This document shows, in pieces, positions 1,883 to 33,581 of a DNA stretch of 64,000 nucleotides. The position numbers were made by a program, and so were the translations under genes. Numbering within the stretch: the stretch's first letter is position 1; every line of letters starts with the position of its first letter. The notes below the pieces were generated by a model. That model made no database searches, was not told the origin of the DNA, and worked only from the letters and a program-made list of their open reading frames with translations. Origin of the DNA: Chitinophagales bacterium (GTDB lineage Bacteria > Bacteroidota > Bacteroidia > Chitinophagales > CAIODY01); NCBI GenBank assembly GCA_947452995.1, contig CANGEV010000013.1, positions 2,033 through 66,032 on the forward strand, given 5' to 3'.

Positions 1883-3046
1883 ATGTCGAAAAGAGATTAC
1901 TACGAGATATTAGGCGTCACTAAAAACGCATCTGCTGACGAGATTAAGAAGTCGTACCGTAAGGTTGCGATGCAATATCATCCTGACAAAAATCCGGATA
2001 ATAAAGAGGCGGAAGAAAAGTTCAAAGAGGCTGCTGAAGCGTATGAAGTATTGAGTGATGCACAGAAGCGCGCGCAGTACGACCAGTTTGGGCATAACGG
2101 TCCGCAAGGCTTTGGTGGCGGCGGTGGCTGGCAAGGTGGCGGCATGGATATGAATGATATCTTCCGCAACTTCGGCGATATCTTCGGCGATGAAAGTCCG
2201 TTCGGTAGCTTCTTTGGTGGCGGCGGACAGAGTCGTGGTGGCCGTAGAGGTGGAGCACGTGGCGGTAATATCCGTGTGAAAGTGAAGTTGTCTTTGCAAG
2301 AGATTGCAGAGGGTGTGAAGAAAACCGTGAAAATTAAAAAGCAAGTCAGCTGTCAACATTGTGGCGGCAATGGCGCGAAAGATAAATCAAGTGTCGCGAC
2401 GTGTAAGACCTGTAATGGTCGGGGCGTTACGATGCGTTTGGTGAACTCTCCATTCGGACAAATGCAAACGCAAACGACTTGCCCTAGCTGTCATGGGGAA
2501 GGACAGACGATCACTTCAAAGTGTTCACATTGTCATGGTGAAGGCAGAATGTATGGTGAAGAAACGATTACAATGGACATTCCTGCCGGTGCTACGGAAG
2601 GTATCCAATTGTCAATGAGTGGTAAAGGAAATGCGGGCGAGCGTGGTGCGGCCGCTGGTGATTTAATCATCAATATCGAAGAGGAAGCACATGAATTTTT
2701 AGAACGCGACGGACAGCATGTGATTTATGATTTACATATCAACTTTGTCGATGCGTGTTTAGGTACGACGGTAGAGGTCCCGACGATTGATGGCAAGGCG
2801 AAGATCAAGTTAGCAGAAGGCACACAAGCCGGTAAGATATTCCGTTTGAAAGGAAAAGGATTACCGTCCTTACAGAGCTATGGTAAAGGCGATCAGCTCG
2901 TCTATGTGAATGTTTGGACGCCGAAGCACTTGAGTGCAGAGGAGAAGAAGATTTTAGAAAAGCTGCGTGAGTCGCCGAATTTCGCACCATCCCCTGACAA
3001 GAACGATCAGTCGTTCTTCAGTAAGATGAAAGACTTCTTTAGCTAA
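1883..3046 (+). CDS. dnaJ: Chaperone DnaJ
   Basis: J domain with HPD, G/F-rich linker and four CxxCxGxG zinc-finger motifs. Confidence 0.98.
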
Positions 3047-3055
3047 TGAATGGTG

Positions 3056-3139
3056 CTCCCGTCCCGACTCGTCGGGAGCGTAGCATCGGGATCACTTTTA
3101 ACCTTTCCCCTTTCCCTCCGATTGCGAAGCAACGGATTC
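3056..3139. repeat. REP-like mini-palindrome cluster overlapping the mscL 3' end
   Basis: TCCCGAC-TC-GTCGGGA at 3062-3077 lies inside an outer CTCCCG...ATCGGGA pair. TCCGATTGCGAAGCAACGGA and purine-rich heptamers are shared with 37074-37162. Confidence 0.7.
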
Positions 3140-3473: not shown

Positions 3474-4481
3474 CTAAATCATTTTTTGCGAAAAAGGAAT
3501 TCGACGCAATAAAACAACGATTAAATAGCTGAGTGGTAAAATCAATAATAATTTCAAACACATGCCGCTAAGACTATGCTGAAAAATTTCATGTGGGTGT
3601 CTGTTCAGATAGCGATTCAAGATATCGAGTGGCATTGCATGCACGAGATAAATACCGAAAGTTAGTGGAGCGAAACTACTAAACCAATTGGCAGTTAGTT
3701 CCACTTGCAAAAAGAGTTTGAAAATAGCGAGGGAAGCGATCACAACGAGCGGCGAAAGATAGTCGTATGGATAAAGGTTACCGCCGTGTAATACACTAAT
3801 GGAAGCAGTTTTAGCAATTGCAATGCTTGCGATAAAATAGATAGCGAACAGCAGGAGCGTAGGAATTTTACGTATGTCTTTTAGGACGAAGGCTGCGAGG
3901 AAATAACCGAGATACTTTACGAAGTTGAGGGCAAAAAATAGTTTATAATGAAAATAGTTTTCGCTAAAATCAATGAGCATACCGAGGCTTAAGAGCACGG
4001 CTGATAGCGTCGCGGCTCGCGTTAGAGACATCAACTTTAAGCGCTTTGCAAAGTAAGGTGCCACAAGATATAGTCCGACAGACATAGTCAGATACCAGAG
4101 ATGATAAAAAGTTTGTCCGCAAGCCGTATAGCTTAACATCGCCTCCCATTGTGGCTTTCCAGCAAAGTAATAATTTGCAGATAACGTATACACGAGATAG
4201 AGCAGGTTCCAAACCAATAGAGGCACAATGATCCGAAAGAATAGGTTGCGTAAGGCATCGCCCCACTCTTCTACCTTTGCTAGTACGAAGCGTCCGCTGA
4301 GCATGACGAATAAGGGCACACAGATACGTGTGAAGGCGTCGACATAATTGGCGAGCTGGAAGTGGCTATCGAAGTTAGCTGTATAGATCCCCTGCAACAC
4401 GTAGCCGGACGCGATATGCAAGATCACAACGAGCAGGGCCGATAAAGTGCGTAAAGTATCTAACGAAGTGTTACGATTCAT
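3474..4481 (-). CDS. Acyltransferase family 3 membrane protein (surface polysaccharide O-acyltransferase-like)
   Basis: SLDTLRTLSALLVVILH, CVPLFVMLSG, YHLWYL and TFGIYLVH motifs; multiple TM helices; likely start ATG 4481. Confidence 0.9.
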   Translation of the reverse strand: MNRNTSLDTLRTLSALLVVILHIASGYVLQGIYTANFDSHFQLANYVDAFTRICVPLFVMLSGRFVLAKVEEWGDALRNLFFRIIVPLLVWNLLYLVYTLSANYYFAGKPQWEAMLSYTACGQTFYHLWYLTMSVGLYLVAPYFAKRLKLMSLTRAATLSAVLLSLGMLIDFSENYFHYKLFFALNFVKYLGYFLAAFVLKDIRKIPTLLLFAIYFIASIAIAKTASISVLHGGNLYPYDYLSPLVVIASLAIFKLFLQVELTANWFSSFAPLTFGIYLVHAMPLDILNRYLNRHPHEIFQHSLSGMCLKLLLILPLSYLIVVLLRRIPFSQKMI

Positions 4482-4505
4482 GTTGAAGAAATTGAAGGTG
4501 ATTAA

Positions 4506-4546
4506 ATTTAGTAACAATCGCTAACATTTCAACTAAACATTAAGGC
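4506..4546 (+). repeat. 41-bp direct repeat, left copy
   Basis: ATTTAGTAACAATCGCTAACATTTCAACTAAACATTAAGGC; 38/41 identical to 6821-6861. Confidence 0.9.
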
Positions 4547-4573
4547 CGAAAATCAATTACCGACATGAGGCTA

Positions 4574-5239
4574 CTACATCTTAACATAAGCGTATGATAC
4601 CCGTTTGATATTACCTAGAGGTTCAAAGCTTTGATTTTCCCTCCAATCACCCCCTTCCTTTTCAATTGATTTTACTTCAACATTAAGTGGCACATCATAT
4701 TTCATGTGCACGGAATAATCACCCAAAAAGCTGTCGAATTCATACGTAAGGGAAATATTGGTCGCTACTATTGGCAACTTTGGTAAAAAATCATTTTGTG
4801 AAATTTCTTGATATTCTCTATTTGTTAAGATACAGGCTATTTTAGTAAGTTCTCCGAAGCGACCTTCCTTAACAAGCTCTAGTTTGCGATTCAATGCGCT
4901 TCTAAAGGTTCGATTTAAAATTTTATTATGGACCAAATGATATGAAAAGTTAACATACAAAAAAGCTGAAACAAGTAAGGTAAGTACTATTGATGCAATG
5001 ATTTTAGTACGAACTGATCCTATTTTTTTTCTTCTGAAATACGCTACAAGTATACGCATACCGATAATAGAAAGTATGGTAACGAGCAAGATATTTAGGA
5101 TGTCGTTTATATGCGAATCGAAGATGTAGGCTAAATCGTCGAAGGAATAACTCATCAAATAAAACAACAGAATCGCATTTAGCAGTGCAATGAGAATATA
5201 TTTGAGTGCTTTAAGTATGGTCTGAATAGTAGTTCGCAT
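4574..5239 (-). CDS. Hypothetical membrane protein (three N-terminal TM helices)
   Basis: 221-aa ORF with three hydrophobic segments followed by a soluble domain; no family recognised. Confidence 0.7.
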   Translation of the reverse strand: MRTTIQTILKALKYILIALLNAILLFYLMSYSFDDLAYIFDSHINDILNILLVTILSIIGMRILVAYFRRKKIGSVRTKIIASIVLTLLVSAFLYVNFSYHLVHNKILNRTFRSALNRKLELVKEGRFGELTKIACILTNREYQEISQNDFLPKLPIVATNISLTYEFDSFLGDYSVHMKYDVPLNVEVKSIEKEGGDWRENQSFEPLGNIKRVSYAYVKM

Positions 5240-24139: not shown

Positions 24140-26734
24140 ATGAATTTGAATCAATTTACAATTAAGGCGCAAGAGGTCATACAAGCGACGCAACAAATTG
24201 CTTTCAATGCCAACCATCAACAAATGGATACCGCCCATTTGTTAAAAGCGCTCCTTAATGAAAGTGCCGACACGATGGATTATATTTTTAAGAAAAACAA
24301 TGTGAATGCCAACAATATACAGCAGCGCAATGAAACATTACTTAAAAGTATTGCGACGGTTAGCGCTGATCCAGCTCAATACATGTCGCGTGAGTTGAAT
24401 GCGGTTATCTTAAAAGCACAGTCACTACTCAAAACCTTCAAAGATGAATTCGTAAGCGTAGAGCATCTACTGCTTGCCATTCTAGCTGGTAATGACGCGG
24501 TCGCTAAACTTTTAAAAGAAGAAGGACTTACTGAAAACAATGCGAAAATAGCCATCCTAGATCTTCGTAAAGGAACAACGGTGAATTCACAAAATGCAGA
24601 TGCACAATACAACGCATTAAGCAAATATGGTAAAAATCTAAACGAGCTAGCTTCTGCCGGCAAACTAGATCCTGTCATTGGTCGTGATGAAGAAATTCGT
24701 CGCACCTTACATATTCTTTCACGCAGAAGTAAGAATAACCCAATTTTAGTTGGTGAACCAGGTGTCGGTAAAACAGCGATTGCAGAAGGGATTGCACACC
24801 GTATCGTGAATGGTGATGTACCAGAAAATCTAAAAAACAAAACTATCTTCTCCCTTGACATGGGCGCTTTAATGGCTGGAGCAAAATTCCGTGGCGACTT
24901 TGAAGAACGTCTAAAAGCGGTAGTGAAAGAAGTGAGCGAATCGAATGGAGAAATAATTTTATTCATCGACGAGATACATACCCTCGTAGGTGCAGGTGCT
25001 ACCGAAGGCGCGATGGACGCTGCAAATATTTTGAAACCTGCCTTAGCACGCGGTGAATTAAGAGCAGTAGGCGCAACCACCTTAGCAGAATATCAAAAGT
25101 ACTTTGAAAAGGATAAAGCCCTAGAACGTCGTTTCCAAAAGGTAATGATCGACGAACCGACTGTGGAAGACGCTATCTCCATCCTACGTGGATTGAAAGA
25201 GCGTTATGAAACACACCATAAAGTACGTATCAAAGATGAAGCAATTATTGCTGCAGTAGAACTTTCGAATCGTTATATCAGCGATCGTTTCTTGCCGGAT
25301 AAAGCCATCGACTTAATAGATGAAAGCGCCGCTAAGCTTCGTTTGGAAATGGATTCATTACCAGAAGAATTAGATGAATTGGAACGTAAGATCCGTCAGT
25401 TAGAAATCGAAAGAGAGGCGATTAAAAGAGAAAATGATGAAACGAAAGTAAACGAACTGTCTCTTGAAATCGCCGACCTAAGCGACGAACGAAATGCGTT
25501 GAAAGCAAAGTGGCAGCAAGAAAAACAAATCGTCGATGCGATTCAACTTTCGAAAAAACAAATCGAACAATATAAGCTAGAGGCCGAACAGGCCGAACGT
25601 AGCGGTGATTACGGTAAAGTAGCCGAACTACGTTACGGTAAGATCAAAGAGGCAGAAAATGAGCAAATACATTTACATGCTGAGCTCTTGCGCAAAAGTG
25701 AAGATGGAAACCGTATGTTGAAAGAAGAAGTCGATGCGGAGGATATTGCAGAGTCCATCGCGAAAGCAACAGGTATTCCAGTAACGAAGATGTTACAAGG
25801 AGAAAAGGAAAAACTATTACATCTCGAAGACGAATTACATAAGCGTGTCATCGGTCAGGATGAAGCTATCATCGCTGTTTCAGATGCCATCCGTAGAAGT
25901 CGCGCTGGTTTAGGGGACGCGAAACGTCCTATCGGATCGTTCATTTTCTTAGGAACAACAGGTGTTGGTAAAACGGAATTAGCGAAAGCGCTTGCAGAAT
26001 TTTTATTCGACGACGAAACGATGATGACGAGAATTGATATGAGCGAATATCAAGAGAAACATACAGTCAGTCGCTTAGTCGGAGCCCCTCCAGGTTATGT
26101 TGGTTATGATGAAGGCGGTCAATTGACAGAAGCTGTTCGTAGAAAGCCTTACTCAGTGGTACTTCTAGATGAAATTGAAAAAGCACATCCAGATGTGTTC
26201 AATATCTTACTGCAAGTATTAGATGATGGTCGCCTCACAGATAGTAAAGGTCGTGTGGTGAATTTCAAAAACACCATCATCATTATGACCAGTAATTTAG
26301 GCTCGCATATTATAGCCAGTCACTTCGATAAAATAGATGAGAAAGATGTTCCAGCCGCCTATGAGAAATCGAAAGTTGAAGTCATGGAACTCTTGAAACA
26401 TAGCCTACGTCCTGAATTGCTGAATCGTATCGATGAAGTATTAATGTTCAAACCATTGATGCGTTCAGAGATTCACAACATTGTGAAGTTGCAACTGAAG
26501 GAATTGAGTGACAAAGTAGAAGCACTTGGCTTCCAATTAGAATTAACACCATTTGCAGTAGATTATTTGGCTGAACAAGGCTTCGAGCCGCAATATGGTG
26601 CCCGTCCATTGAAAAGATTAATTCAAAAGGAAATCACCAATGCTTTAAGTAGAAAATTATTAGAAGGCAATCTCAACAAAGAAAAGCCTCTATTAATCGA
26701 TGTTTTCGACGATAAGGTGGTAGTGAGAAATTAA
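24140..26734 (+). CDS. clpB: ATP-dependent chaperone ClpB
   Basis: Two AAA+ modules ([16 protein letters not shown]), long coiled-coil middle domain, [12 protein letters not shown]. Confidence 0.97.
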
Positions 26735-28071
26735 TTCGTCTTCGATAGAAAACGCTGAAACCAATAACCCGAGTCTTTCACGATTCGGGTTTGGTCTTCA
26801 TAATCGACATAGATCAGACCAAATCGCGGACGATACGATTCAGCCCATTCGAAGTTGTCGGTGAGCGACCAAACAAAATAACCCTTTACTGGAAGTCCGT
26901 CTAGAACGCAGTTTTGTAATTCCTTCAAATGATTCACAAAATAGGACTGACGTTGTTGATCATCAATTCTTCCGTCAATCACTTGATCAGGGAATGCAGC
27001 TCCGTTCTCCGTTATGATAATATCTTTTACATTGCTATAAGCTGCGAATTTCTCTACCATCTCGCGCATAACAGGAGGATATACTTCCCAATTCATCGCT
27101 GTATGTTGTACAGAACGTTCGTTCGCTGGAATGAGCCTAGCTTGTAAATATGGAATAATAAATCGATGCGATACTACCTCTCTTGTATAAGGTTGAAGCC
27201 CGATAAAGTCGAAGTTACAAGGCAATATTTTTTCATCATTCGGACCAAAATAATCGTATACCTTTCGAAGGACCGGAAGCGATTTAACAGGATAGCCTAA
27301 GCCCATAGCAGGTTCGACAAACAATCGATTTAACATGGCATCCATTCTTTCTGCTGCTTGCACATCCTGCACACTTTGCGAATGCGGATGAATTCCTGTG
27401 CAAGAGTAAGTGGTTCCTACATATGAATTCGGGACATTACTTCTTATGACCATTTCGCCAATTGGCTGGCATAATGCTGCGTGATGCATAGCAGGCAAAA
27501 ACTGACTCAAGCCTCTTTTACCAGGTGCATGTAAGCCCAGAAAATAACCAACTCCAGTGAATGCTGTAGGTTCATTTAAAACCATCCAGTGTTTAACCTT
27601 ATCCCCAAATTCATTAGTCACTAAGTGTACGTAATCTTCAAAATAGTTGATGATATCTCTGTTTGCCCAACCACCTTTATCTTGTAGTGCTTGCGGTAGA
27701 TCCCAATGATATAAAGTACACCAAGGCGTAATACCTTTTAATAAACACAAATCAATGAGTCGATGATAAAAAGAAAGCCCTTTTTGATTTATCCTTCCAT
27801 GTCCGTTAGGAAGTATTCTAGACCAAGAAATAGAAAAACGAAAATTTTTAAAGCCTAATAATCCTAGCAATCGAATATCGTTCGGATATTGATGATAGAA
27901 ATCGCTCCCTTTAGCAGGACCATTATTCCCACTTAGATTTTTCGACTGAGCCGCGAAGGTATCCCAAATAGAAGGTCCTCTCCCATCCTCATTCCATGCC
28001 CCTTCCGACTGCGCAGCAGAAGTCGCCGCACCCCAAATAAAATCATCTCCAAACGCCCTTCGAGTAAGCAT
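26731..28071 (-). CDS. GH1 beta-glucosidase, cytoplasmic
   Basis: FIWGAATSAAQSEG, FRFSISWSRI, LNEP (acid/base), ITENG (nucleophile) and DNFEW; no signal peptide. Confidence 0.95.
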   Translation of the reverse strand: MLTRRAFGDDFIWGAATSAAQSEGAWNEDGRGPSIWDTFAAQSKNLSGNNGPAKGSDFYHQYPNDIRLLGLLGFKNFRFSISWSRILPNGHGRINQKGLSFYHRLIDLCLLKGITPWCTLYHWDLPQALQDKGGWANRDIINYFEDYVHLVTNEFGDKVKHWMVLNEPTAFTGVGYFLGLHAPGKRGLSQFLPAMHHAALCQPIGEMVIRSNVPNSYVGTTYSCTGIHPHSQSVQDVQAAERMDAMLNRLFVEPAMGLGYPVKSLPVLRKVYDYFGPNDEKILPCNFDFIGLQPYTREVVSHRFIIPYLQARLIPANERSVQHTAMNWEVYPPVMREMVEKFAAYSNVKDIIITENGAAFPDQVIDGRIDDQQRQSYFVNHLKELQNCVLDGLPVKGYFVWSLTDNFEWAESYRPRFGLIYVDYEDQTRIVKDSGYWFQRFLSKTN

Positions 28072-28080
28072 CCCTTCAAA

Positions 28081-29118
28081 TTATTGAAATAAAAACTGCT
28101 CTTCACCAATATACTCAGCACTCAAATTTTTACCAGCATGTATAACTATCTTCCCGACAATTAAATTGCGTTGATCCACATAATTCACCTTTGTATTAGT
28201 ACCATTCTCCATCCAATCGGCAATTTTTGGAAGATGTTTACGCTTCAATTTCTTGACAACACTTATTTTCATCTTTTTAAGAAACTCAGCATTGCAAGCT
28301 TGCTCATATTGCCCTTTCATAGGAATCACACATAACTTTTTCCCGAGGTACAGTGCTTCAGAAGTGGTACCAAATCCAGCATTACATAACACACCTTCAC
28401 AAGATGCCATCGCTGCTGTAAACTTTTTATTATCTAAAGGTTGAATATGAATCGTTCCTTCCACACGCTCTACAGTGGTTGTTTTTGAAAAAACTTCCCA
28501 CTTTGCAACGGGCAATCGACTTAATTGCTTAATTATTTTATCATCAGAATAGGATGGCAAATACACGACATAATGACCTTTATTAGTCACTTTAATATTC
28601 CGAACTTCATCACGAATAACTGGCGTAAAAATATTTAGGTCGAAGGCCTTATAATGAAATCCATAATTGATATTTGTGGGCGCATAACGTTTTAAGACCA
28701 TCCACCCTAACAAATCTTTACGCTTAGGACGTGGTGCTGAAGGATGTATCGTAGCAATTTGATTACTCAAGCCTACACAATCACGTTTTGCTAGTAAACA
28801 AGCCCATGCCGACACAGGCTCAAAATCACTAATCACCAGGTCATAGTCGTTGACTGGCAACTTCTTTATATCAGACAATAGCTGTTTGGTATTAGCTTGT
28901 AAATAGGTGCGCCATACATCCACACCGCCCTTCTTTCCGAAGAAAAAAGAAAGCCCTTTGAAACGATATTTCACAGGAAAGGGCAGCGCAATTTCACATT
29001 GCTCGCCACTGATTAATATATCTACATGACCGTGCTTTTGTAATTCGGGTAATAGTGCTATTGCTCGCGTTAAATGGCCATTCCCTGTGCCTTGAATTGC
29101 ATACAATATTTTCATCAT
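28081..29118 (-). CDS. GT-B glycosyltransferase, MJ1255/VC2487-like family
   Basis: MKILYAIQGTGNGHLTRA, ISDFEP, NAGFGTTSEALYLGK and GQYEQ motifs. Confidence 0.9.
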   Translation of the reverse strand: MMKILYAIQGTGNGHLTRAIALLPELQKHGHVDILISGEQCEIALPFPVKYRFKGLSFFFGKKGGVDVWRTYLQANTKQLLSDIKKLPVNDYDLVISDFEPVSAWACLLAKRDCVGLSNQIATIHPSAPRPKRKDLLGWMVLKRYAPTNINYGFHYKAFDLNIFTPVIRDEVRNIKVTNKGHYVVYLPSYSDDKIIKQLSRLPVAKWEVFSKTTTVERVEGTIHIQPLDNKKFTAAMASCEGVLCNAGFGTTSEALYLGKKLCVIPMKGQYEQACNAEFLKKMKISVVKKLKRKHLPKIADWMENGTNTKVNYVDQRNLIVGKIVIHAGKNLSAEYIGEEQFLFQ

Positions 29119-29996
29119 GCTTTCTTTTGTAAAGGAATCACATTAAACTCTTCCATCAATGATTGAAAGATTTCAGCCTGGTCTTTAGTTTCTATTTTTT
29201 CATCTTCCTCCTCTTCAAATTGCTCTAGCTCATATTTATAATGCACAAGTTCCCATTTGCCATCATTATACTCTAGTGCACTGCAATGTTCCACCCAATC
29301 TCCCGAATTCAAATAATCTATGTTATCTCCATTATCTAATGCGATCTTTCGTTTAGTAGGCTGGTGTATATGTCCGCAAACAACGTAATCATACCCTCTT
29401 TCGATAGCTATACTTGCGGCTGCCGATTCGAAATTGTTGATAAACTTCACAGCCGACTTCACACTGTTTTTAATATTCTTCGAAAGAGAAATTTTTTCCT
29501 TGCCGACTTTCGTCAACACCCAATTTATCACTGCATTTAAAACAATTAGAAAGTCGTATCCATGCGCCCCCAACTTCGTTAGCCACTTGGCGTGCTGCAT
29601 CGTAAAATCAAAAATATCACCATGAAAAAACCAATGCTTCTTTCCATCTAGTTCCAAAATCAACTGATTTTCGATCACCAAACCTCCCATATCAAAACCT
29701 ACAAATTTACGTAACAACTCATCATGATTTCCAGTGATATAATGTACGCGAACACCCTTCCCTGCCCACTTTAAAATCTGCTGCACCACCTGCATATGCT
29801 CCTTCGGCCAATATCTTTTACTGAATTGCCACATATCAATGATATCTCCGTTTAAGATCACTGTTTGTGGCTTGATGCTCTTCATGTATTGCAATAACTC
29901 TTTCGCATGACAACCATATGTTCCCAAATGAACATCTGAAATAACTAATACTTCCACCTTACGCTTCTTGCGCTTAATGTTCTCTTTGGTCTCCAT
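29115..29996 (-). CDS. Calcineurin-like metallophosphoesterase, PlcP / LpxH2-like phospholipase C
   Basis: SDVHLG, GDIID, GNHD (His, not the Arg of LpxH GNRD), HGD, GHIH and NSGDWVE motifs. Confidence 0.85.
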   Translation of the reverse strand: METKENIKRKKRKVEVLVISDVHLGTYGCHAKELLQYMKSIKPQTVILNGDIIDMWQFSKRYWPKEHMQVVQQILKWAGKGVRVHYITGNHDELLRKFVGFDMGGLVIENQLILELDGKKHWFFHGDIFDFTMQHAKWLTKLGAHGYDFLIVLNAVINWVLTKVGKEKISLSKNIKNSVKSAVKFINNFESAAASIAIERGYDYVVCGHIHQPTKRKIALDNGDNIDYLNSGDWVEHCSALEYNDGKWELVHYKYELEQFEEEEDEKIETKDQAEIFQSLMEEFNVIPLQKKA

Positions 29997-30096
29997 AAAA
30001 TACGATTGAAAATTGGAGCGTCGATGTGTGCTTCAAAAGGGAAGCATCGCTCTTTAATATATCCTTAAGACCAACGATAGTCTTTAACATCTAATA

Positions 30097-30151
30097 CAAA
30101 TGTATAGACGCTATATGATGTAATCGTTAAGAGTATTTAAAGATTTGTAAA
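30097..30151 (-). promoter_or_regulatory. Promoter with Pho-box-like tandem repeats
   Basis: On the minus strand TTTACA, TTAAAT, TTAACG and ATCATA begin at 30151, 30140, 30130 and 30119. They lie upstream of the -7 box TACATTTG (30104-30097). Confidence 0.45.
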
Positions 30152-30175
30152 AATATAAGCACAGAAACAAGCCGA

Positions 30176-30733
30176 TTACTCTTGTTTCAACTCTAAACCA
30201 TCCAACCAAACATCTACAATATGGTCGACGTTGATTTCAATTCGGAGACGGTCGAAGCCTTTAGGAACAGTATAGGTCTGTTCAAAATAATTCCAATCCG
30301 TCTTCGACTGAAGAAAGATTCGTGTGCTGAGATGTTGGCCATGATGCGCATTGACACCTCCCATCTGAAAAGGAACAGAACTCGCGTCAGCAGATTTTAT
30401 CCAGCCACTTAATTGATAAGTAGCACCCGCTACAGCAGGCATTTCCTTCGCAATACCTGGCGCTTGATTTCCAGTCGCCGACTTACACGCATTCACTTTC
30501 CAGTGCAAACTAAACTGCCCCTCTTTCTTCACAGAAGCGTCCGCACTCGTTGTAAAAGAACCAGGCGTTCCAGTTTCTTCGCTATACACCTGCCAATTAT
30601 AAGGTGTTGCGCCCTGCCAAAATTCAAAGCCTCCATTGAAGCCCTTAGAAGCGTCTTCCACATATAATGAACTAGCACCCCAACCACAGCTCACTAAAAC
30701 TAAAAGTGCGACAGGTAAAAAGTGCTTTTTCAT
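30176..30733 (-). CDS. Lipoprotein with carbohydrate-binding-module-like (CBM4/9-type) domain
   Basis: Lipobox LVSC; FNGGFE, GATYQLSGWIK and VWLDGLEL motifs. Confidence 0.7.
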   Translation of the reverse strand: MKKHFLPVALLVLVSCGWGASSLYVEDASKGFNGGFEFWQGATPYNWQVYSEETGTPGSFTTSADASVKKEGQFSLHWKVNACKSATGNQAPGIAKEMPAVAGATYQLSGWIKSADASSVPFQMGGVNAHHGQHLSTRIFLQSKTDWNYFEQTYTVPKGFDRLRIEINVDHIVDVWLDGLELKQE

Positions 30734-30758
30734 CAATAAAATTTATTCTTTTTAGAAA

Positions 30759-33581
30759 CTACTTACTCAAGTGCATACTACGCTCCTTGTACAACTGACG
30801 GAAGTAAGGATCGCGCAAGTCTTTGATGAAACGAATCGCCTCGCCGGTAGATTTCATTTCTGGACCTAACTCCTTGTTTACATTAGGGAACTTATCAAAA
30901 GAGAAGACAGGTTCCTTAATCGCATAGCCTTTTAACTTAGGCTCGAATTTGAAATCAGTCAACTTCTTCTCTCCTAACATTATCTTAGTCGCTACATTCA
31001 AATAAGGAATTTGATAAGCCTTCGCAATAAATGGCGTCGTACGACTTGCACGCGGATTCGCCTCAATCACAAATACCTTATCATCCTTGATCGCAAATTG
31101 AAAGTTGATTAAGCCTTTAATGTTCAACTTAAACGCAATCTTCTTCGCATAATCCTTCATCTCCTCGATCACTAAAGGAGTCAGATTAAACGGAGGCAAC
31201 ACCGCATTACTATCACCACTGTGAATTCCCGCAGGCTCGATATGCTCCATCACACCCATCACATGGAAATTCTCTCCGTCACATATTCCGTCGATCTCAG
31301 CTTCTTGACAACGATCTAAGAAGTGATCAATCAAAATAGTATTGCCCGGTAAGTGCTTCAACAAGCTCAATACCGCCTTTTCCAACTCTTCATCATTGAT
31401 TACAATTCGCATACGTTGACCGCCCAATACATAGCTCGGACGAACCAAAACCGGATAACCAATTTTCTTCGCCACTTCTAATGCTTCATCTGCTGTATGT
31501 GCTGTACCGTATTGCGGATAAGGGATATTCAATTCCTTCAACATATCGGAGAAACGACCACGATCTTCTGCAATGTCCATATTATCGAAAGAAGTACCTA
31601 TGATGCGGATTCCTTTCTCATGTAGACGTTTAGAAAGCTTCAAAGCTGTTTGCCCACCTAATTGTACGATCACACCGTACGGCTTCTCCAACTCGATAAT
31701 CTCCCAAAGATGTTCCCAGAATACAGGCTCGAAGTAAAGCTTATCCGCCATATCGAAATCCGTACTCACTGTTTCAGGATTACAATTCACCATGATCGCT
31801 TCGTAACCGCATTCTCTAATCGCCTGCAAACCGTGTGTACAACAGTAATCGAATTCGATTCCTTGTCCGATACGATTTGGTCCGCTACCCAACACAATCA
31901 CTTTCTTACGATCACTCGGCTTGCTCTCGTTCTCTGTGTCAAACGTACTATAGAAATAGTTGGTTTTACTTTCAAACTCTGCAGCACAAGTATCTACCAT
32001 TTTATAGGTACGACGGATATTCATCGCAATACGCGCATTGAAAATATCTTCATCGGTACATTTATTATCTAACAACTTCGCAATTTGCAAATCGCTAAAG
32101 CCCGTTTGCTTTGCCTTGCGCATATCATCCACACTGATTTCACTTACTGCATTATGCGTAATCAAATGCTTCTCCATATCAACAATAGCCTGAATCTGAT
32201 TCAAAAACCATTTATCAATCATAGTTAATTTATGAATGGTAGAAACAGAAACACCTGCCATCAAGGCATCCTTAATTCTGAAAACACGATCCCATTTAGG
32301 TGTCTTTAAATACTCCAACAATTCTTCCGTCTTCATCAACGACTTGCCATAGTATCCTAAGCCAATCGCATCATTCTCCAAACTCTGACAAGCCTTCTGA
32401 ATCGCTTCCGGGAAGGTTCTGCCTATCGCCATCACCTCACCTACCGCTTTCATCTGAAAACCTAAAGTATCATTTGCTCCTTTGAACTTGTCGAAGTTCC
32501 AACGAGGTATTTTTACAATCACATAATCTAAAGTAGGCTCGAAGAAGGCAGAAGTAGTTTTGGTGATTTGATTTTTCAACTCATCCAAATTATAACCTAC
32601 AGCCAATTTCGCAGCGATCTTCGCAATCGGATAACCCGTCGCTTTTGAAGCTAATGCCGAAGAACGACTCACACGTGGATTAATTTCAACGACGATGATT
32701 TCTTCCGTGTCAGGATTCATCGCAAATTGCACATTACATCCGCCTGCAAAATTTCCTAAGTTGCGCATCATACTGATAGCAGTATTACGCATCAATTGAA
32801 AGGCTGTATCACTCAAGGTCATAGCCGGTGCTACCGTAATACTATCTCCCGTATGAACGCCCATCGGGTCAAAATTCTCAACCGTACAAATGATCGTTAC
32901 ATTATTATTATTGTCGCGCAACAATTCCAATTCATATTCTTTCCAACCCAATACTGCTTTTTCTACCAACACTTCATGAATTGGACTTGCAGTCAAGGCT
33001 CTGTTTAAGGCCTCATCTAAATCTTCCTTTTTGAAAACAACGCCACCACCTGTTCCACCCAAAGTAAACGAAGGACGCAATACTAATGGAAAACCAATCT
33101 CTTGCGCAAACTCCTTTCCTTCTAAAAATGAATTAGCCACTTTCGCAGGACAAACAGGAATACCCATTTCAATCATCCACTGACGGAACAAATCACGATC
33201 TTCTGCTTTGTCAATCGCCTTGATATCAACGCCAATCATGCGTACTTTATATTCTTCCCACAAGCCAATTTCATCGGCTTCTTTACACAGATTCAAGGCT
33301 GTTTGTCCGCCCATAGTCGGTAGTACCGCATCAATCTCATTTTCTTTTAAGATTTGCTCGATCGATTCAACCGTCAATGGCAATAAATACACCTTATCAG
33401 CGACCAAGTTATCGGTCATGATAGTCGCAGGATTGCTATTGATAAGGATTACTTTGATGCCTTCTTCACGAAGTGAACGAGCGGCTTGAGAGCCAGAATA
33501 GTCGAATTCACAAGCTTGTCCGATGATAATTGGTCCTGACCCGATGATGAGGACGCTGCGGAGGGAGGTATCTTTTGGCAT
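30759..33581 (-). CDS. carB: Carbamoyl-phosphate synthase large subunit (no C-terminal MGS domain)
   Basis: GSGPIIIGQACEFDYSG; two ATP-grasp units; ends shortly after LGPEMKSTGE. Confidence 0.97.
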   Translation of the reverse strand: MPKDTSLRSVLIIGSGPIIIGQACEFDYSGSQAARSLREEGIKVILINSNPATIMTDNLVADKVYLLPLTVESIEQILKENEIDAVLPTMGGQTALNLCKEADEIGLWEEYKVRMIGVDIKAIDKAEDRDLFRQWMIEMGIPVCPAKVANSFLEGKEFAQEIGFPLVLRPSFTLGGTGGGVVFKKEDLDEALNRALTASPIHEVLVEKAVLGWKEYELELLRDNNNNVTIICTVENFDPMGVHTGDSITVAPAMTLSDTAFQLMRNTAISMMRNLGNFAGGCNVQFAMNPDTEEIIVVEINPRVSRSSALASKATGYPIAKIAAKLAVGYNLDELKNQITKTTSAFFEPTLDYVIVKIPRWNFDKFKGANDTLGFQMKAVGEVMAIGRTFPEAIQKACQSLENDAIGLGYYGKSLMKTEELLEYLKTPKWDRVFRIKDALMAGVSVSTIHKLTMIDKWFLNQIQAIVDMEKHLITHNAVSEISVDDMRKAKQTGFSDLQIAKLLDNKCTDEDIFNARIAMNIRRTYKMVDTCAAEFESKTNYFYSTFDTENESKPSDRKKVIVLGSGPNRIGQGIEFDYCCTHGLQAIRECGYEAIMVNCNPETVSTDFDMADKLYFEPVFWEHLWEIIELEKPYGVIVQLGGQTALKLSKRLHEKGIRIIGTSFDNMDIAEDRGRFSDMLKELNIPYPQYGTAHTADEALEVAKKIGYPVLVRPSYVLGGQRMRIVINDEELEKAVLSLLKHLPGNTILIDHFLDRCQEAEIDGICDGENFHVMGVMEHIEPAGIHSGDSNAVLPPFNLTPLVIEEMKDYAKKIAFKLNIKGLINFQFAIKDDKVFVIEANPRASRTTPFIAKAYQIPYLNVATKIMLGEKKLTDFKFEPKLKGYAIKEPVFSFDKFPNVNKELGPEMKSTGEAIRFIKDLRDPYFRQLYKERSMHLSK

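Follow-up and report, generated by a model that had tools for sequence, protein, structure and literature searches.

A conserved PlcP, glycosyltransferase and GH1 gene unit in Bacteroidota: a candidate phospholipid-to-glycolipid operon

We describe three adjacent genes in a 64,000-nt stretch of DNA from a Chitinophagales bacterium (the window; coordinates are given in its numbering unless another locus or contig is named), whose source genome measures 2.54 Mb and is 99.96% complete. In order of transcription, they encode a 293-aa metallophosphoesterase of the PlcP family (LpxH2 type; 29115-29996, minus strand), a 345-aa PF13528 (MJ1255-like) glycosyltransferase (GT; 28081-29118, minus strand) and a 446-aa cytoplasmic beta-glucosidase of glycoside hydrolase family 1 (GH1; 26731-28071, minus strand). 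We estimate the probability that the three form a single phospholipid-to-glycolipid operon at roughly 0.55.

An earlier note on this DNA (hereafter the original prediction) had proposed three co-oriented open reading frames (ORFs), and the ORF list indeed places all of them on the minus strand between 26731 and 29996. Two further details that it gave, an ATGA in which the stop codon of the phosphoesterase overlaps the start codon of the GT (29118-29115) and a 9-nt spacer between GT and GH1 (28072-28080), were found when the sequence was read directly. The three window genes are translationally coupled.

The arrangement is far from chance, given its recurrence in the best 80 related loci, which were drawn from one genome per species. 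Across Bacteroidota, this neighbourhood survey found PlcP and GT tightly linked: the GT lies directly 3' of the PlcP gene, on the same strand, in 76 of the 80 loci; the two genes are separated by a median of 5 nt, and their stop and start codons overlap or nearly do so. In three others the two genes are 0.8–1.6 kb apart, and the last ends too early to judge. GH1, where linked, always follows the GT directly, as is the case in 42 of the 70 loci informative for it (those whose sequence extends 1.6 kb or more beyond the GT).

In the pathway that we propose, the PlcP-family enzyme would cut glycerophospholipids (chiefly phosphatidylethanolamine in Bacteroidota) at the phosphodiester, yielding diacylglycerol and a phosphorylated head group with recyclable phosphate. 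The GT, as a predicted UDP-hexose:diacylglycerol beta-glycosyltransferase, would then move glucose or galactose from a UDP-sugar to diacylglycerol and form a beta-monoglycosyl-diacylglycerol. In the last and least certain step, the cytoplasmic GH1, a retaining beta-glycosidase, would take the beta-glycolipid from the GT as its substrate. It could hydrolyse this lipid to regenerate diacylglycerol, so that the lipid swap would be reversible, or it could pass the sugar to a second glycolipid by transglycosylation, in the manner of plant SFR2. Inverting glycosyltransferases yield beta-linkages, which are the linkages that GH1 enzymes cleave. The succession of PlcP, inverting transferase and beta-glycosidase makes chemical sense and is strongly conserved, and is best read as a variant of PlcP–glycosyltransferase lipid renovation.

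The phosphoesterase groups with PlcP and not with LpxH

Judged by its sequence, the phosphoesterase is a phospholipase C of the PlcP family, with a predicted release of diacylglycerol, and not the lipid A enzyme LpxH (UDP-2,3-diacylglucosamine diphosphatase). It scores above the cut-offs of PF12850 and PF00149, and its metal-binding motifs (DxH, GD, GNHD, H and GHxH) are invariant across 13 homologues. The LpxH equivalogs are its best NCBIfam matches, though far below cut-off (54.5 bits versus 134 for NF003743; 48.4 bits versus 190.35 for TIGR01854). Identity amounts to 39% with S. meliloti PlcP (165 bits) and 41% with P. aeruginosa PlcP (183 bits), compared with 23–24% (45–49 bits) for E. coli LpxH and for the LpxH-like paralogue of its own genome.

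Proteobacterial homologues, recovered with tblastn from a plasmid collection that includes some mislabelled chromosomes, were 39–46% identical to the window protein. The S. meliloti match adjoins LuxR and acyl-homoserine lactone synthase genes of the sinR/sinI type, a position that we take to be that of SMc00171, the first characterised PlcP. The P. aeruginosa match is followed by a family-1 glycosyltransferase and then by an adenylate cyclase, a gene order that fits the PA3219-PA3218 operon as described in passages of PMC8528852.

In an IQ-TREE maximum-likelihood tree of 38 sequences (root arbitrary), one clade (support 98/93) unites the PlcPs with the window protein and with 24 relatives from Bacteroidota, among them that of P. 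distasonis. The PlcP-type gene of a Crocinitomicaceae locus (L081) lies within this clade, which leaves out E. coli LpxH as well as both kinds of Bacteroidota LpxH-like paralogue. The GNHD motif named in the original prediction is present, but the proposal that GNHD versus GNRD separates PlcP from LpxH fails: every Bacteroidota LpxH-like protein that we extracted has GNHD, and among the LpxH-like proteins examined only E. coli LpxH has GNRD. Because both types of Bacteroidota paralogue carry GNHD, the motif does not discriminate within the phylum.

The genome of the window encodes a second LpxH-like protein, on contig C16, that scores 92.5 bits against the LpxH model (54.4–54.5 bits for the window gene), together with a canonical LpxB; LpxI was not found in this genome. 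We then considered a sample of 201 genomes of the Bacteroidota phylum with a completeness of 90% or more. Orthologues of the PlcP type (E ≤ 2.7e-45, against 1.4e-22 for the best of the remaining matches) occurred in 72 of them, some LpxH-like match in 194, and the C16-type paralogue (E ≤ 1e-25) in 160. One family, f26, had the C16 type in none of its 33 genomes at the latter threshold; all five f26 genomes tested encode another LpxH-like protein besides the PlcP type, and LpxI was not found in these five. Given its limited distribution and the presence of separate LpxH-like genes, the window plcP-like gene is an accessory paralogue.

Automatic annotation would make this protein LpxH, the name that its homologues bear in public sources. 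LpxH structures are also its only solved relatives (E 3.8e-8), and LpxH and the window protein share a calcineurin-like fold family and an inserted cap region. We nevertheless consider an LpxH identity very improbable and rejected it. Both equivalog scores lie far beneath their cut-offs, a better-scoring LpxH-like gene exists elsewhere in the genome, and the window-gene orthologues are limited to 72 of the 201 phylum genomes, where an LpxH would be expected to be near-universal among lipid A producers. In addition, the protein is 23% identical to E. coli LpxH against approximately 40% to the characterised PlcPs, and it falls into the clade of the latter.

The C-terminus of the Bacteroidota PlcP type (about 40 residues; window 29115-29240) has an acidic stretch and, after it, the conserved amphipathic segment EIFxxMLxEF, in which F277 is invariant; the proteobacterial PlcPs are shorter and have no such segment. 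Among the plasmid-borne homologues, the PlcP-like gene of a Fuscovulum blasticum plasmid (L104) is accompanied by genes for two GTs, one of them ceramide-glucosyltransferase-like, and for a VTT-domain protein; on a Mitsuaria plasmid (L102) the partners are ppk1 and ppx.

The glycosyltransferase resembles inverting enzymes for lipophilic acceptors

The GT matches PF13528 with 116.8 bits (cut-off 25) and stays below the cut-off of TIGR00661 (MJ1255/VC2487; 153.9 bits, cut-off 195.9). Its AlphaFold2 model, built with 39 homologues (pLDDT 91.2), has the two-Rossmann GT-B fold of the inverting GT1/GT28 type. VIA Z-scores of the model were 22.8 for B. subtilis YojK (GT1), 21.4 for the yeast sterol glucosyltransferase UGT51, 20.2 for MurG and 16.7 for plant MGD1, the top matches being inverting GT-B enzymes for lipophilic acceptors. 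A GTGNGH loop is invariant in the 39 homologues; the role of this N-terminal glycine-rich loop with its His is predicted by analogy with MurG and GT1 enzymes.

The original prediction had held this GT to be unrelated to Agt, which agrees with the E value of 0.15 obtained with BLASTP against the protein at the Agt1 position in P. aeruginosa. Agt1 itself is a CAZy GT4 enzyme (its record is annotated ‘glycosyltransferase family 1’). No solved structure related to the GT by sequence was found, the protein atlas returned only unnamed PF13528 clusters, and a literature search on the family names found no functional study. A role of the PF13528 protein as an alternative lipid A disaccharide synthase was also considered and dropped, a canonical LpxB being present.

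At E ≤ 1e-20, 93 of the 201 phylum genomes have a match to the GT, and in 52 genomes the match is strong (E ≤ 6.5e-66). The strong matches lie beside PlcP in 49 genomes and elsewhere in two (G158 and G186); one genome (G062) has no PlcP orthologue. In P. distasonis, too, a PlcP-like gene is followed by a PF13528 GT.

Homologues of the GT, 31–36% identical to it, were found in all 39 genomes of family f19 (including G157, G069 and G097; loci L116-L118), which we identify as green sulfur bacteria because the FMO bacteriochlorophyll protein is encoded in all three of the genomes tested for it. Neither the PlcP type nor a GH1 partner occurs in the f19 genomes. An exact look-up identified the homologue in Chlorobaculum tepidum and Chlorobium limicola as a ‘glycosyltransferase’ of the TIGR00661 family; the window GT and the C. 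tepidum PF13528/TIGR00661 protein, listed as AAM71590.1/Q8KFI2, are 33% identical (E 5e-42). Green sulfur bacteria use monogalactosyldiacylglycerol (MGDG) constitutively, in chlorosomes.

Their MGDG synthase, MgdA, is treated in passages of PMC3276260 and PMC5897459, and the former state that the C. tepidum enzyme is of the GT1 family. In three green sulfur genomes, PF00201, the one GT1 Pfam model searched, had no match, and PF04101 had a single match of MurG-like strength in each, with no second. Together with the GT1 statement, this failure to find other GT1-like genes in the three genomes makes the homologue, on sequence grounds, a strong candidate for MgdA, the UDP-galactose:diacylglycerol transferase. 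The locus tag of MgdA is presumably CT0344.

GH1 recurs next to the glycosyltransferase

The GH1 protein belongs to PF00232 and scores 514.6 bits against TIGR03356 (GH1 beta-glucosidase), above the cut-off of 478.5. Both catalytic Glu motifs announced in the original prediction can be read in the translation, as NEP and TENG. The N-termini of the phosphoesterase, the GT and GH1 were inspected by eye and revealed no hydrophobic signal sequence, in line, at this level of inspection, with the claim that GH1 has no signal peptide.

Linked GH1 copies are 47–57% identical to that of the window (98% in a near-identical metagenome-assembled genome, MAG). They are present in Chitinophagaceae, many Flavobacteriaceae, Hymenobacteraceae, Vicingaceae and others, and missing in Pedobacter, Cyclobacteriaceae, Lutibacter, Yeosuana and Tenacibaculum; no GH1 was found in five f26 genomes. 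Co-conservation of GH1 with the other two genes thus stands only in part: it adjoins the GT in 42 of the 70 informative loci and travels with the GT in the absence of PlcP, and it is missing from the other 28. The GT-GH1 order survives inversion relative to PlcP (L078) and insertions between PlcP and GT (L022, L036), and the two genes also stay adjacent where PlcP is unlinked (G158) or its orthologue missing (G062).

The neighbours of the GT-GH1 pair in G158 encode a fatty acid desaturase and a protein of the lipid A acyltransferase family. In G062 (L113, G062:C1:4322000-4333500), a PF01663/PF01676 phosphodiesterase lies just 5' of the pair, next to a divergent GDPD (L113 ORFs 3765-4931(+) and 2084-3058(-)). 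In this single case, the phosphodiesterase may stand in for PlcP as a non-orthologous enzyme that likewise removes head groups.

Plants and mammals are known to have GH1 enzymes with membrane glycolipids as substrates, working in the cytosol or at the membrane surface. By analogy, SFR2 (galactolipid:galactolipid galactosyltransferase) and KLrP/GBA3 (cytosolic glucosylceramidase) offer precedents for the role proposed here, with the difference that the window GH1 resembles an ordinary bacterial BglA-type enzyme. We know of no enzyme for extending or removing bacterial glycoglycerolipids, and a literature search for PlcP with GH1 found nothing relevant. A more specific version of our proposal, in which GH1 would be a dedicated glycoglycerolipid enzyme, either an SFR2-like builder of di- and oligoglycosyl-diacylglycerols, by transglycosylation from the monoglycosyl lipid of an MgdA-like transferase, or a reverse gear that gives back diacylglycerol when phosphate returns, is tentative and on balance unlikely.

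Upstream region and possible phosphate control

By analogy with other PlcP systems, phosphate shortage would be the most likely inducer of the operon. Passages of PMC4796936, PMC8528852 and PMC8115612 present the PlcPs of S. meliloti, Phaeobacter, SAR11, P. aeruginosa, Dokdonia and F. johnsoniae as parts of phosphate-starvation systems. For flavobacteria in particular, induction of a plcP homologue by phosphorus starvation is reported in a section of PMC4796936, and an excerpt of PMC8115612 lists, under inorganic phosphate depletion of F. johnsoniae, values of 8.59 for ‘PlcP’ Fjoh_4577 and 5.42 for the glycosyltransferase Fjoh_0541, which we take to be log2 fold changes. The same excerpt describes Fjoh_0541 as a pf04101 glycosyltransferase in the PhoBR operon.

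OmpR-type regulators with PhoB as the best family match adjoin 8 of the 80 related loci. They are found just after the GT in L027, L032, L037, L046 and L075, and also in L025 and L045; in L033 (4982-6782), a pair of a PhoB-like regulator and a PhoR/PnpS-like kinase is situated directly 5' of plcP on the same strand. In the genome of the window, pstS is on contig C8 and a PhoB/PhoR-like pair, orthologous to that of L033, on contig C4, both away from the locus.

The 179-nt intergenic region 5' of plcP (29997-30175, minus strand) is, from a reading of its sequence, a probable promoter. Within it, TACATTTG at 30104-30097 fits TAnnTTTG, which we take to be the Bacteroidota -7 consensus. Comparison of ORFs also revealed a candidate mini-ORF of 38 aa (29974-30090, minus strand), which overlaps the start of plcP by 23 nt. 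Mini-ORFs of 30–46 codons end at or just inside the plcP start in many related loci (among them L009, L015, L016, L028, L033, L040, L047, L065, L067, L072, L083 and L026), and a core like F-x-S-P-[LF]-K-[FY] recurs in loci of Flavobacteriaceae, Chitinophagaceae, Hymenobacteraceae and Pedobacter, thus across at least four families. The window copy is divergent, with STLQF instead of SPLKF. Two representative mini-ORFs had no match in Pfam; the candidate could encode a small subunit or a leader peptide.

A possible Pho box, TTAAC-N2-TTACA, was rejected after 20 exact matches were counted in the genome versus the approximately 13 expected from base composition (our own arithmetic); of the 20 matches, six fall within a single internally repetitive ORF of 6965 codons (G000:C1:278473-299370). 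The region upstream of pstS offered no clearly shared site. It was observed separately that an ORF of about 70 codons, hydrophobic in appearance, is located 5' of pstS (G000:C8:83646-83860), between a terminator-like hairpin and a pstS-pstCAB-like row of genes.

Alternative explanations

Several observations weigh against a phosphate-controlled operon for phospholipid-to-glycolipid conversion. If a synthase were co-transcribed with a hydrolase of its own product, the two would run a futile cycle. Passages of PMC4796936 describe a distinctive membrane, rich in aminolipids, for Dokdonia, the only flavobacterium for which that paper has lipid data, and name no glycolipids there. Comparison by eye of the upstream region of the window with 78 related upstream regions established no Pho box, none of the response regulators found beside related loci reaches the PhoB cut-offs, and no RNA data set containing the locus is listed. 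It is unconfirmed that the window genes are orthologous to Fjoh_4577, Fjoh_0541 and Dokdonia plcP, and likewise that the green sulfur homologue is MgdA. In the phosphoesterase tree, E. coli LpxH is the sole characterised LpxH and sits on a very long branch. A GT of this family is lacking at E ≤ 1e-20 in 20 of the 72 PlcP-positive genomes; GT-GH1 also occurs with no PlcP orthologue in one genome (G062), and the GT family occurs with no PlcP in green sulfur bacteria, and the GT is therefore not dependent on PlcP. As for GH1, its closest solved relatives are ordinary GH1 beta-glucosidases of the cellobiose type, it is not beside the GT in 28 of the 70 informative loci, a 50%-identical copy in Pedobacter zeae is unlinked, among housekeeping genes, and no GH1 match was obtained in two of the five genomes searched that harbour GH1-less loci.

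These last points would fit an operon in which only PlcP and GT are coupled, and in which GH1 serves in the cytoplasm as a general beta-glucosidase, with cellobiose or aryl-glucosides as substrates, and shares the transcription unit by chance in some lineages. The protein passes a generic beta-glucosidase equivalog and, being the sole GH1 found in a 2.5-Mb genome, would have to serve any sugar catabolism too. Against this stand the position of GH1 directly 3' of the GT in 42 loci from Chitinophagaceae, Flavobacteriaceae, Hymenobacteraceae and other groups, the order of the pair, which withstands inversion and separation from PlcP, and its persistence where PlcP is elsewhere or missing; nor do transporter or sugar-utilisation genes recur beside GH1 in the 80 related loci. 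We regard this explanation as possible, if on the unlikely side. Quite unlikely, in our assessment, is that GT and GH1 glycosylate and deglycosylate some other lipophilic acceptor (a ceramide, carotenoid, polyprenol or small metabolite), with PlcP linked for another reason such as phosphate salvage. Such a role is suggested by the closest structural relatives of the GT, which are GT1 enzymes for sterols, macrolides and flavonoids, by the pair without PlcP in G062, by the 20 PlcP-positive genomes that lack this GT, and by the Dokdonia account of aminolipids. It is at odds with the adjacency of PlcP and GT in 76 of 80 loci through overlapping or nearly overlapping codons, with the different phosphodiesterase that takes the place of PlcP near a GDPD in G062, and with the lipid genes around the pair in G158. 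It also has to contend with a homologue that is universal in the sampled green sulfur bacteria, whose diacylglycerol galactosyltransferase is GT1-type according to the passages of PMC3276260. Finally, the pathway could be as proposed and its expression constitutive, or tied to temperature, envelope stress or growth phase instead of phosphate. The failure to find a Pho box, the distance of the locus from the pst and pho genes and the constitutive use of the GT family by green sulfur bacteria all point in this direction, and the reports of PlcP systems as phosphate-starvation systems and the PhoB-like regulators at 8 of the 80 loci point away from it; we judge it rather unlikely.

Relation to known systems

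The proposed phospholipid-to-glycolipid operon has its nearest counterpart in PlcP-Agt lipid renovation, as in S. meliloti (SMc00171), Phaeobacter MED193, SAR11 HTCC7211 and P. aeruginosa (PA3219-PA3218). Both rely on the same phospholipase family (approximately 40% identity, same clade), and the window resembles P. aeruginosa and Sphingomonas in that a glycosyltransferase gene follows PlcP directly, its start codon overlapping the PlcP stop codon or lying close to it. They differ in the transferase, which in the window is a PF13528 protein of the inverting GT1/GT28-like type with no detectable similarity to Agt1, and in the addition of GH1 and of the upstream mini-ORF. The green sulfur MgdA system, should its synthase prove to be the GT homologue, differs in that the PlcP and GH1 partners are missing there.

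The original prediction knew of no description of such a module. As far as the adjacency of plcP and a glycosyltransferase is concerned, this does not hold, since passages of PMC4796936 already place plcP immediately 5' of putative glycosyltransferases in some marine bacteria. What remains new is the use of a PF13528 transferase (possibly MgdA-like), the GH1 partner and the conserved mini-ORF.

Exchanging phospholipids for phosphorus-free lipids is a major phosphorus saving for aquatic and soil bacteria. Bacteroidota play a key part in degradation in lakes, oceans and the rhizosphere, and the enzymes that act after PlcP in this phylum are undefined; the locus points to a specific, poorly characterised transferase family that may be related to the green sulfur MGDG synthase. 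The recurrence of GH1, in turn, raises the question of how bacterial glycoglycerolipids are extended or removed. Should the more specific version of the proposal, with GH1 as a dedicated glycoglycerolipid enzyme, be correct, PlcP, GT, GH1 and the mini-protein would make up a self-contained, reversible membrane-swap module, widespread in environmental Bacteroidota, that would account for many of the ‘unidentified glycolipids’ of the phylum. Several cultivable species carry the full triad, among them Croceitalea dokdonensis, Aurantibacter crassamenti, Rufibacter hautae, Pontibacter qinzhouensis and Mariniflexile soesokkakense, and the hypothesis is therefore directly testable.

Genomic surroundings and occurrence

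Upstream of the operon lies a gene for a 186-aa CBM_4_9 protein (30176-30736, minus strand) with, by eye, a lipoprotein-like N-terminus, followed further upstream by a 940-aa ORF (30759-33581) that we read, by eye only, as carB. Downstream, a convergent 864-aa ORF, assigned to clpB likewise by eye only, overlaps the stop codon of GH1. When the related loci were searched with tblastn, the CBM_4_9, carB-like and clpB-like proteins were matched only in the closest one, and the CBM_4_9 gene falls outside the conserved unit because it is common only to the closest related MAG. No further gene is conserved around the triad in the 80 related loci, the remaining clusters of neighbours reflecting lineage-specific synteny.

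The nearest public relative is a Chitinophagales MAG with 93% identity. DNA of the locus is present in lake and other freshwater metagenomes, with four full holders, all of which are flagged as possible sources of the window DNA. At the downstream border, the ends of GH1 and of the clpB-like ORF overlap by 4 nt (26731-26734), which leaves no intergenic space for terminators.

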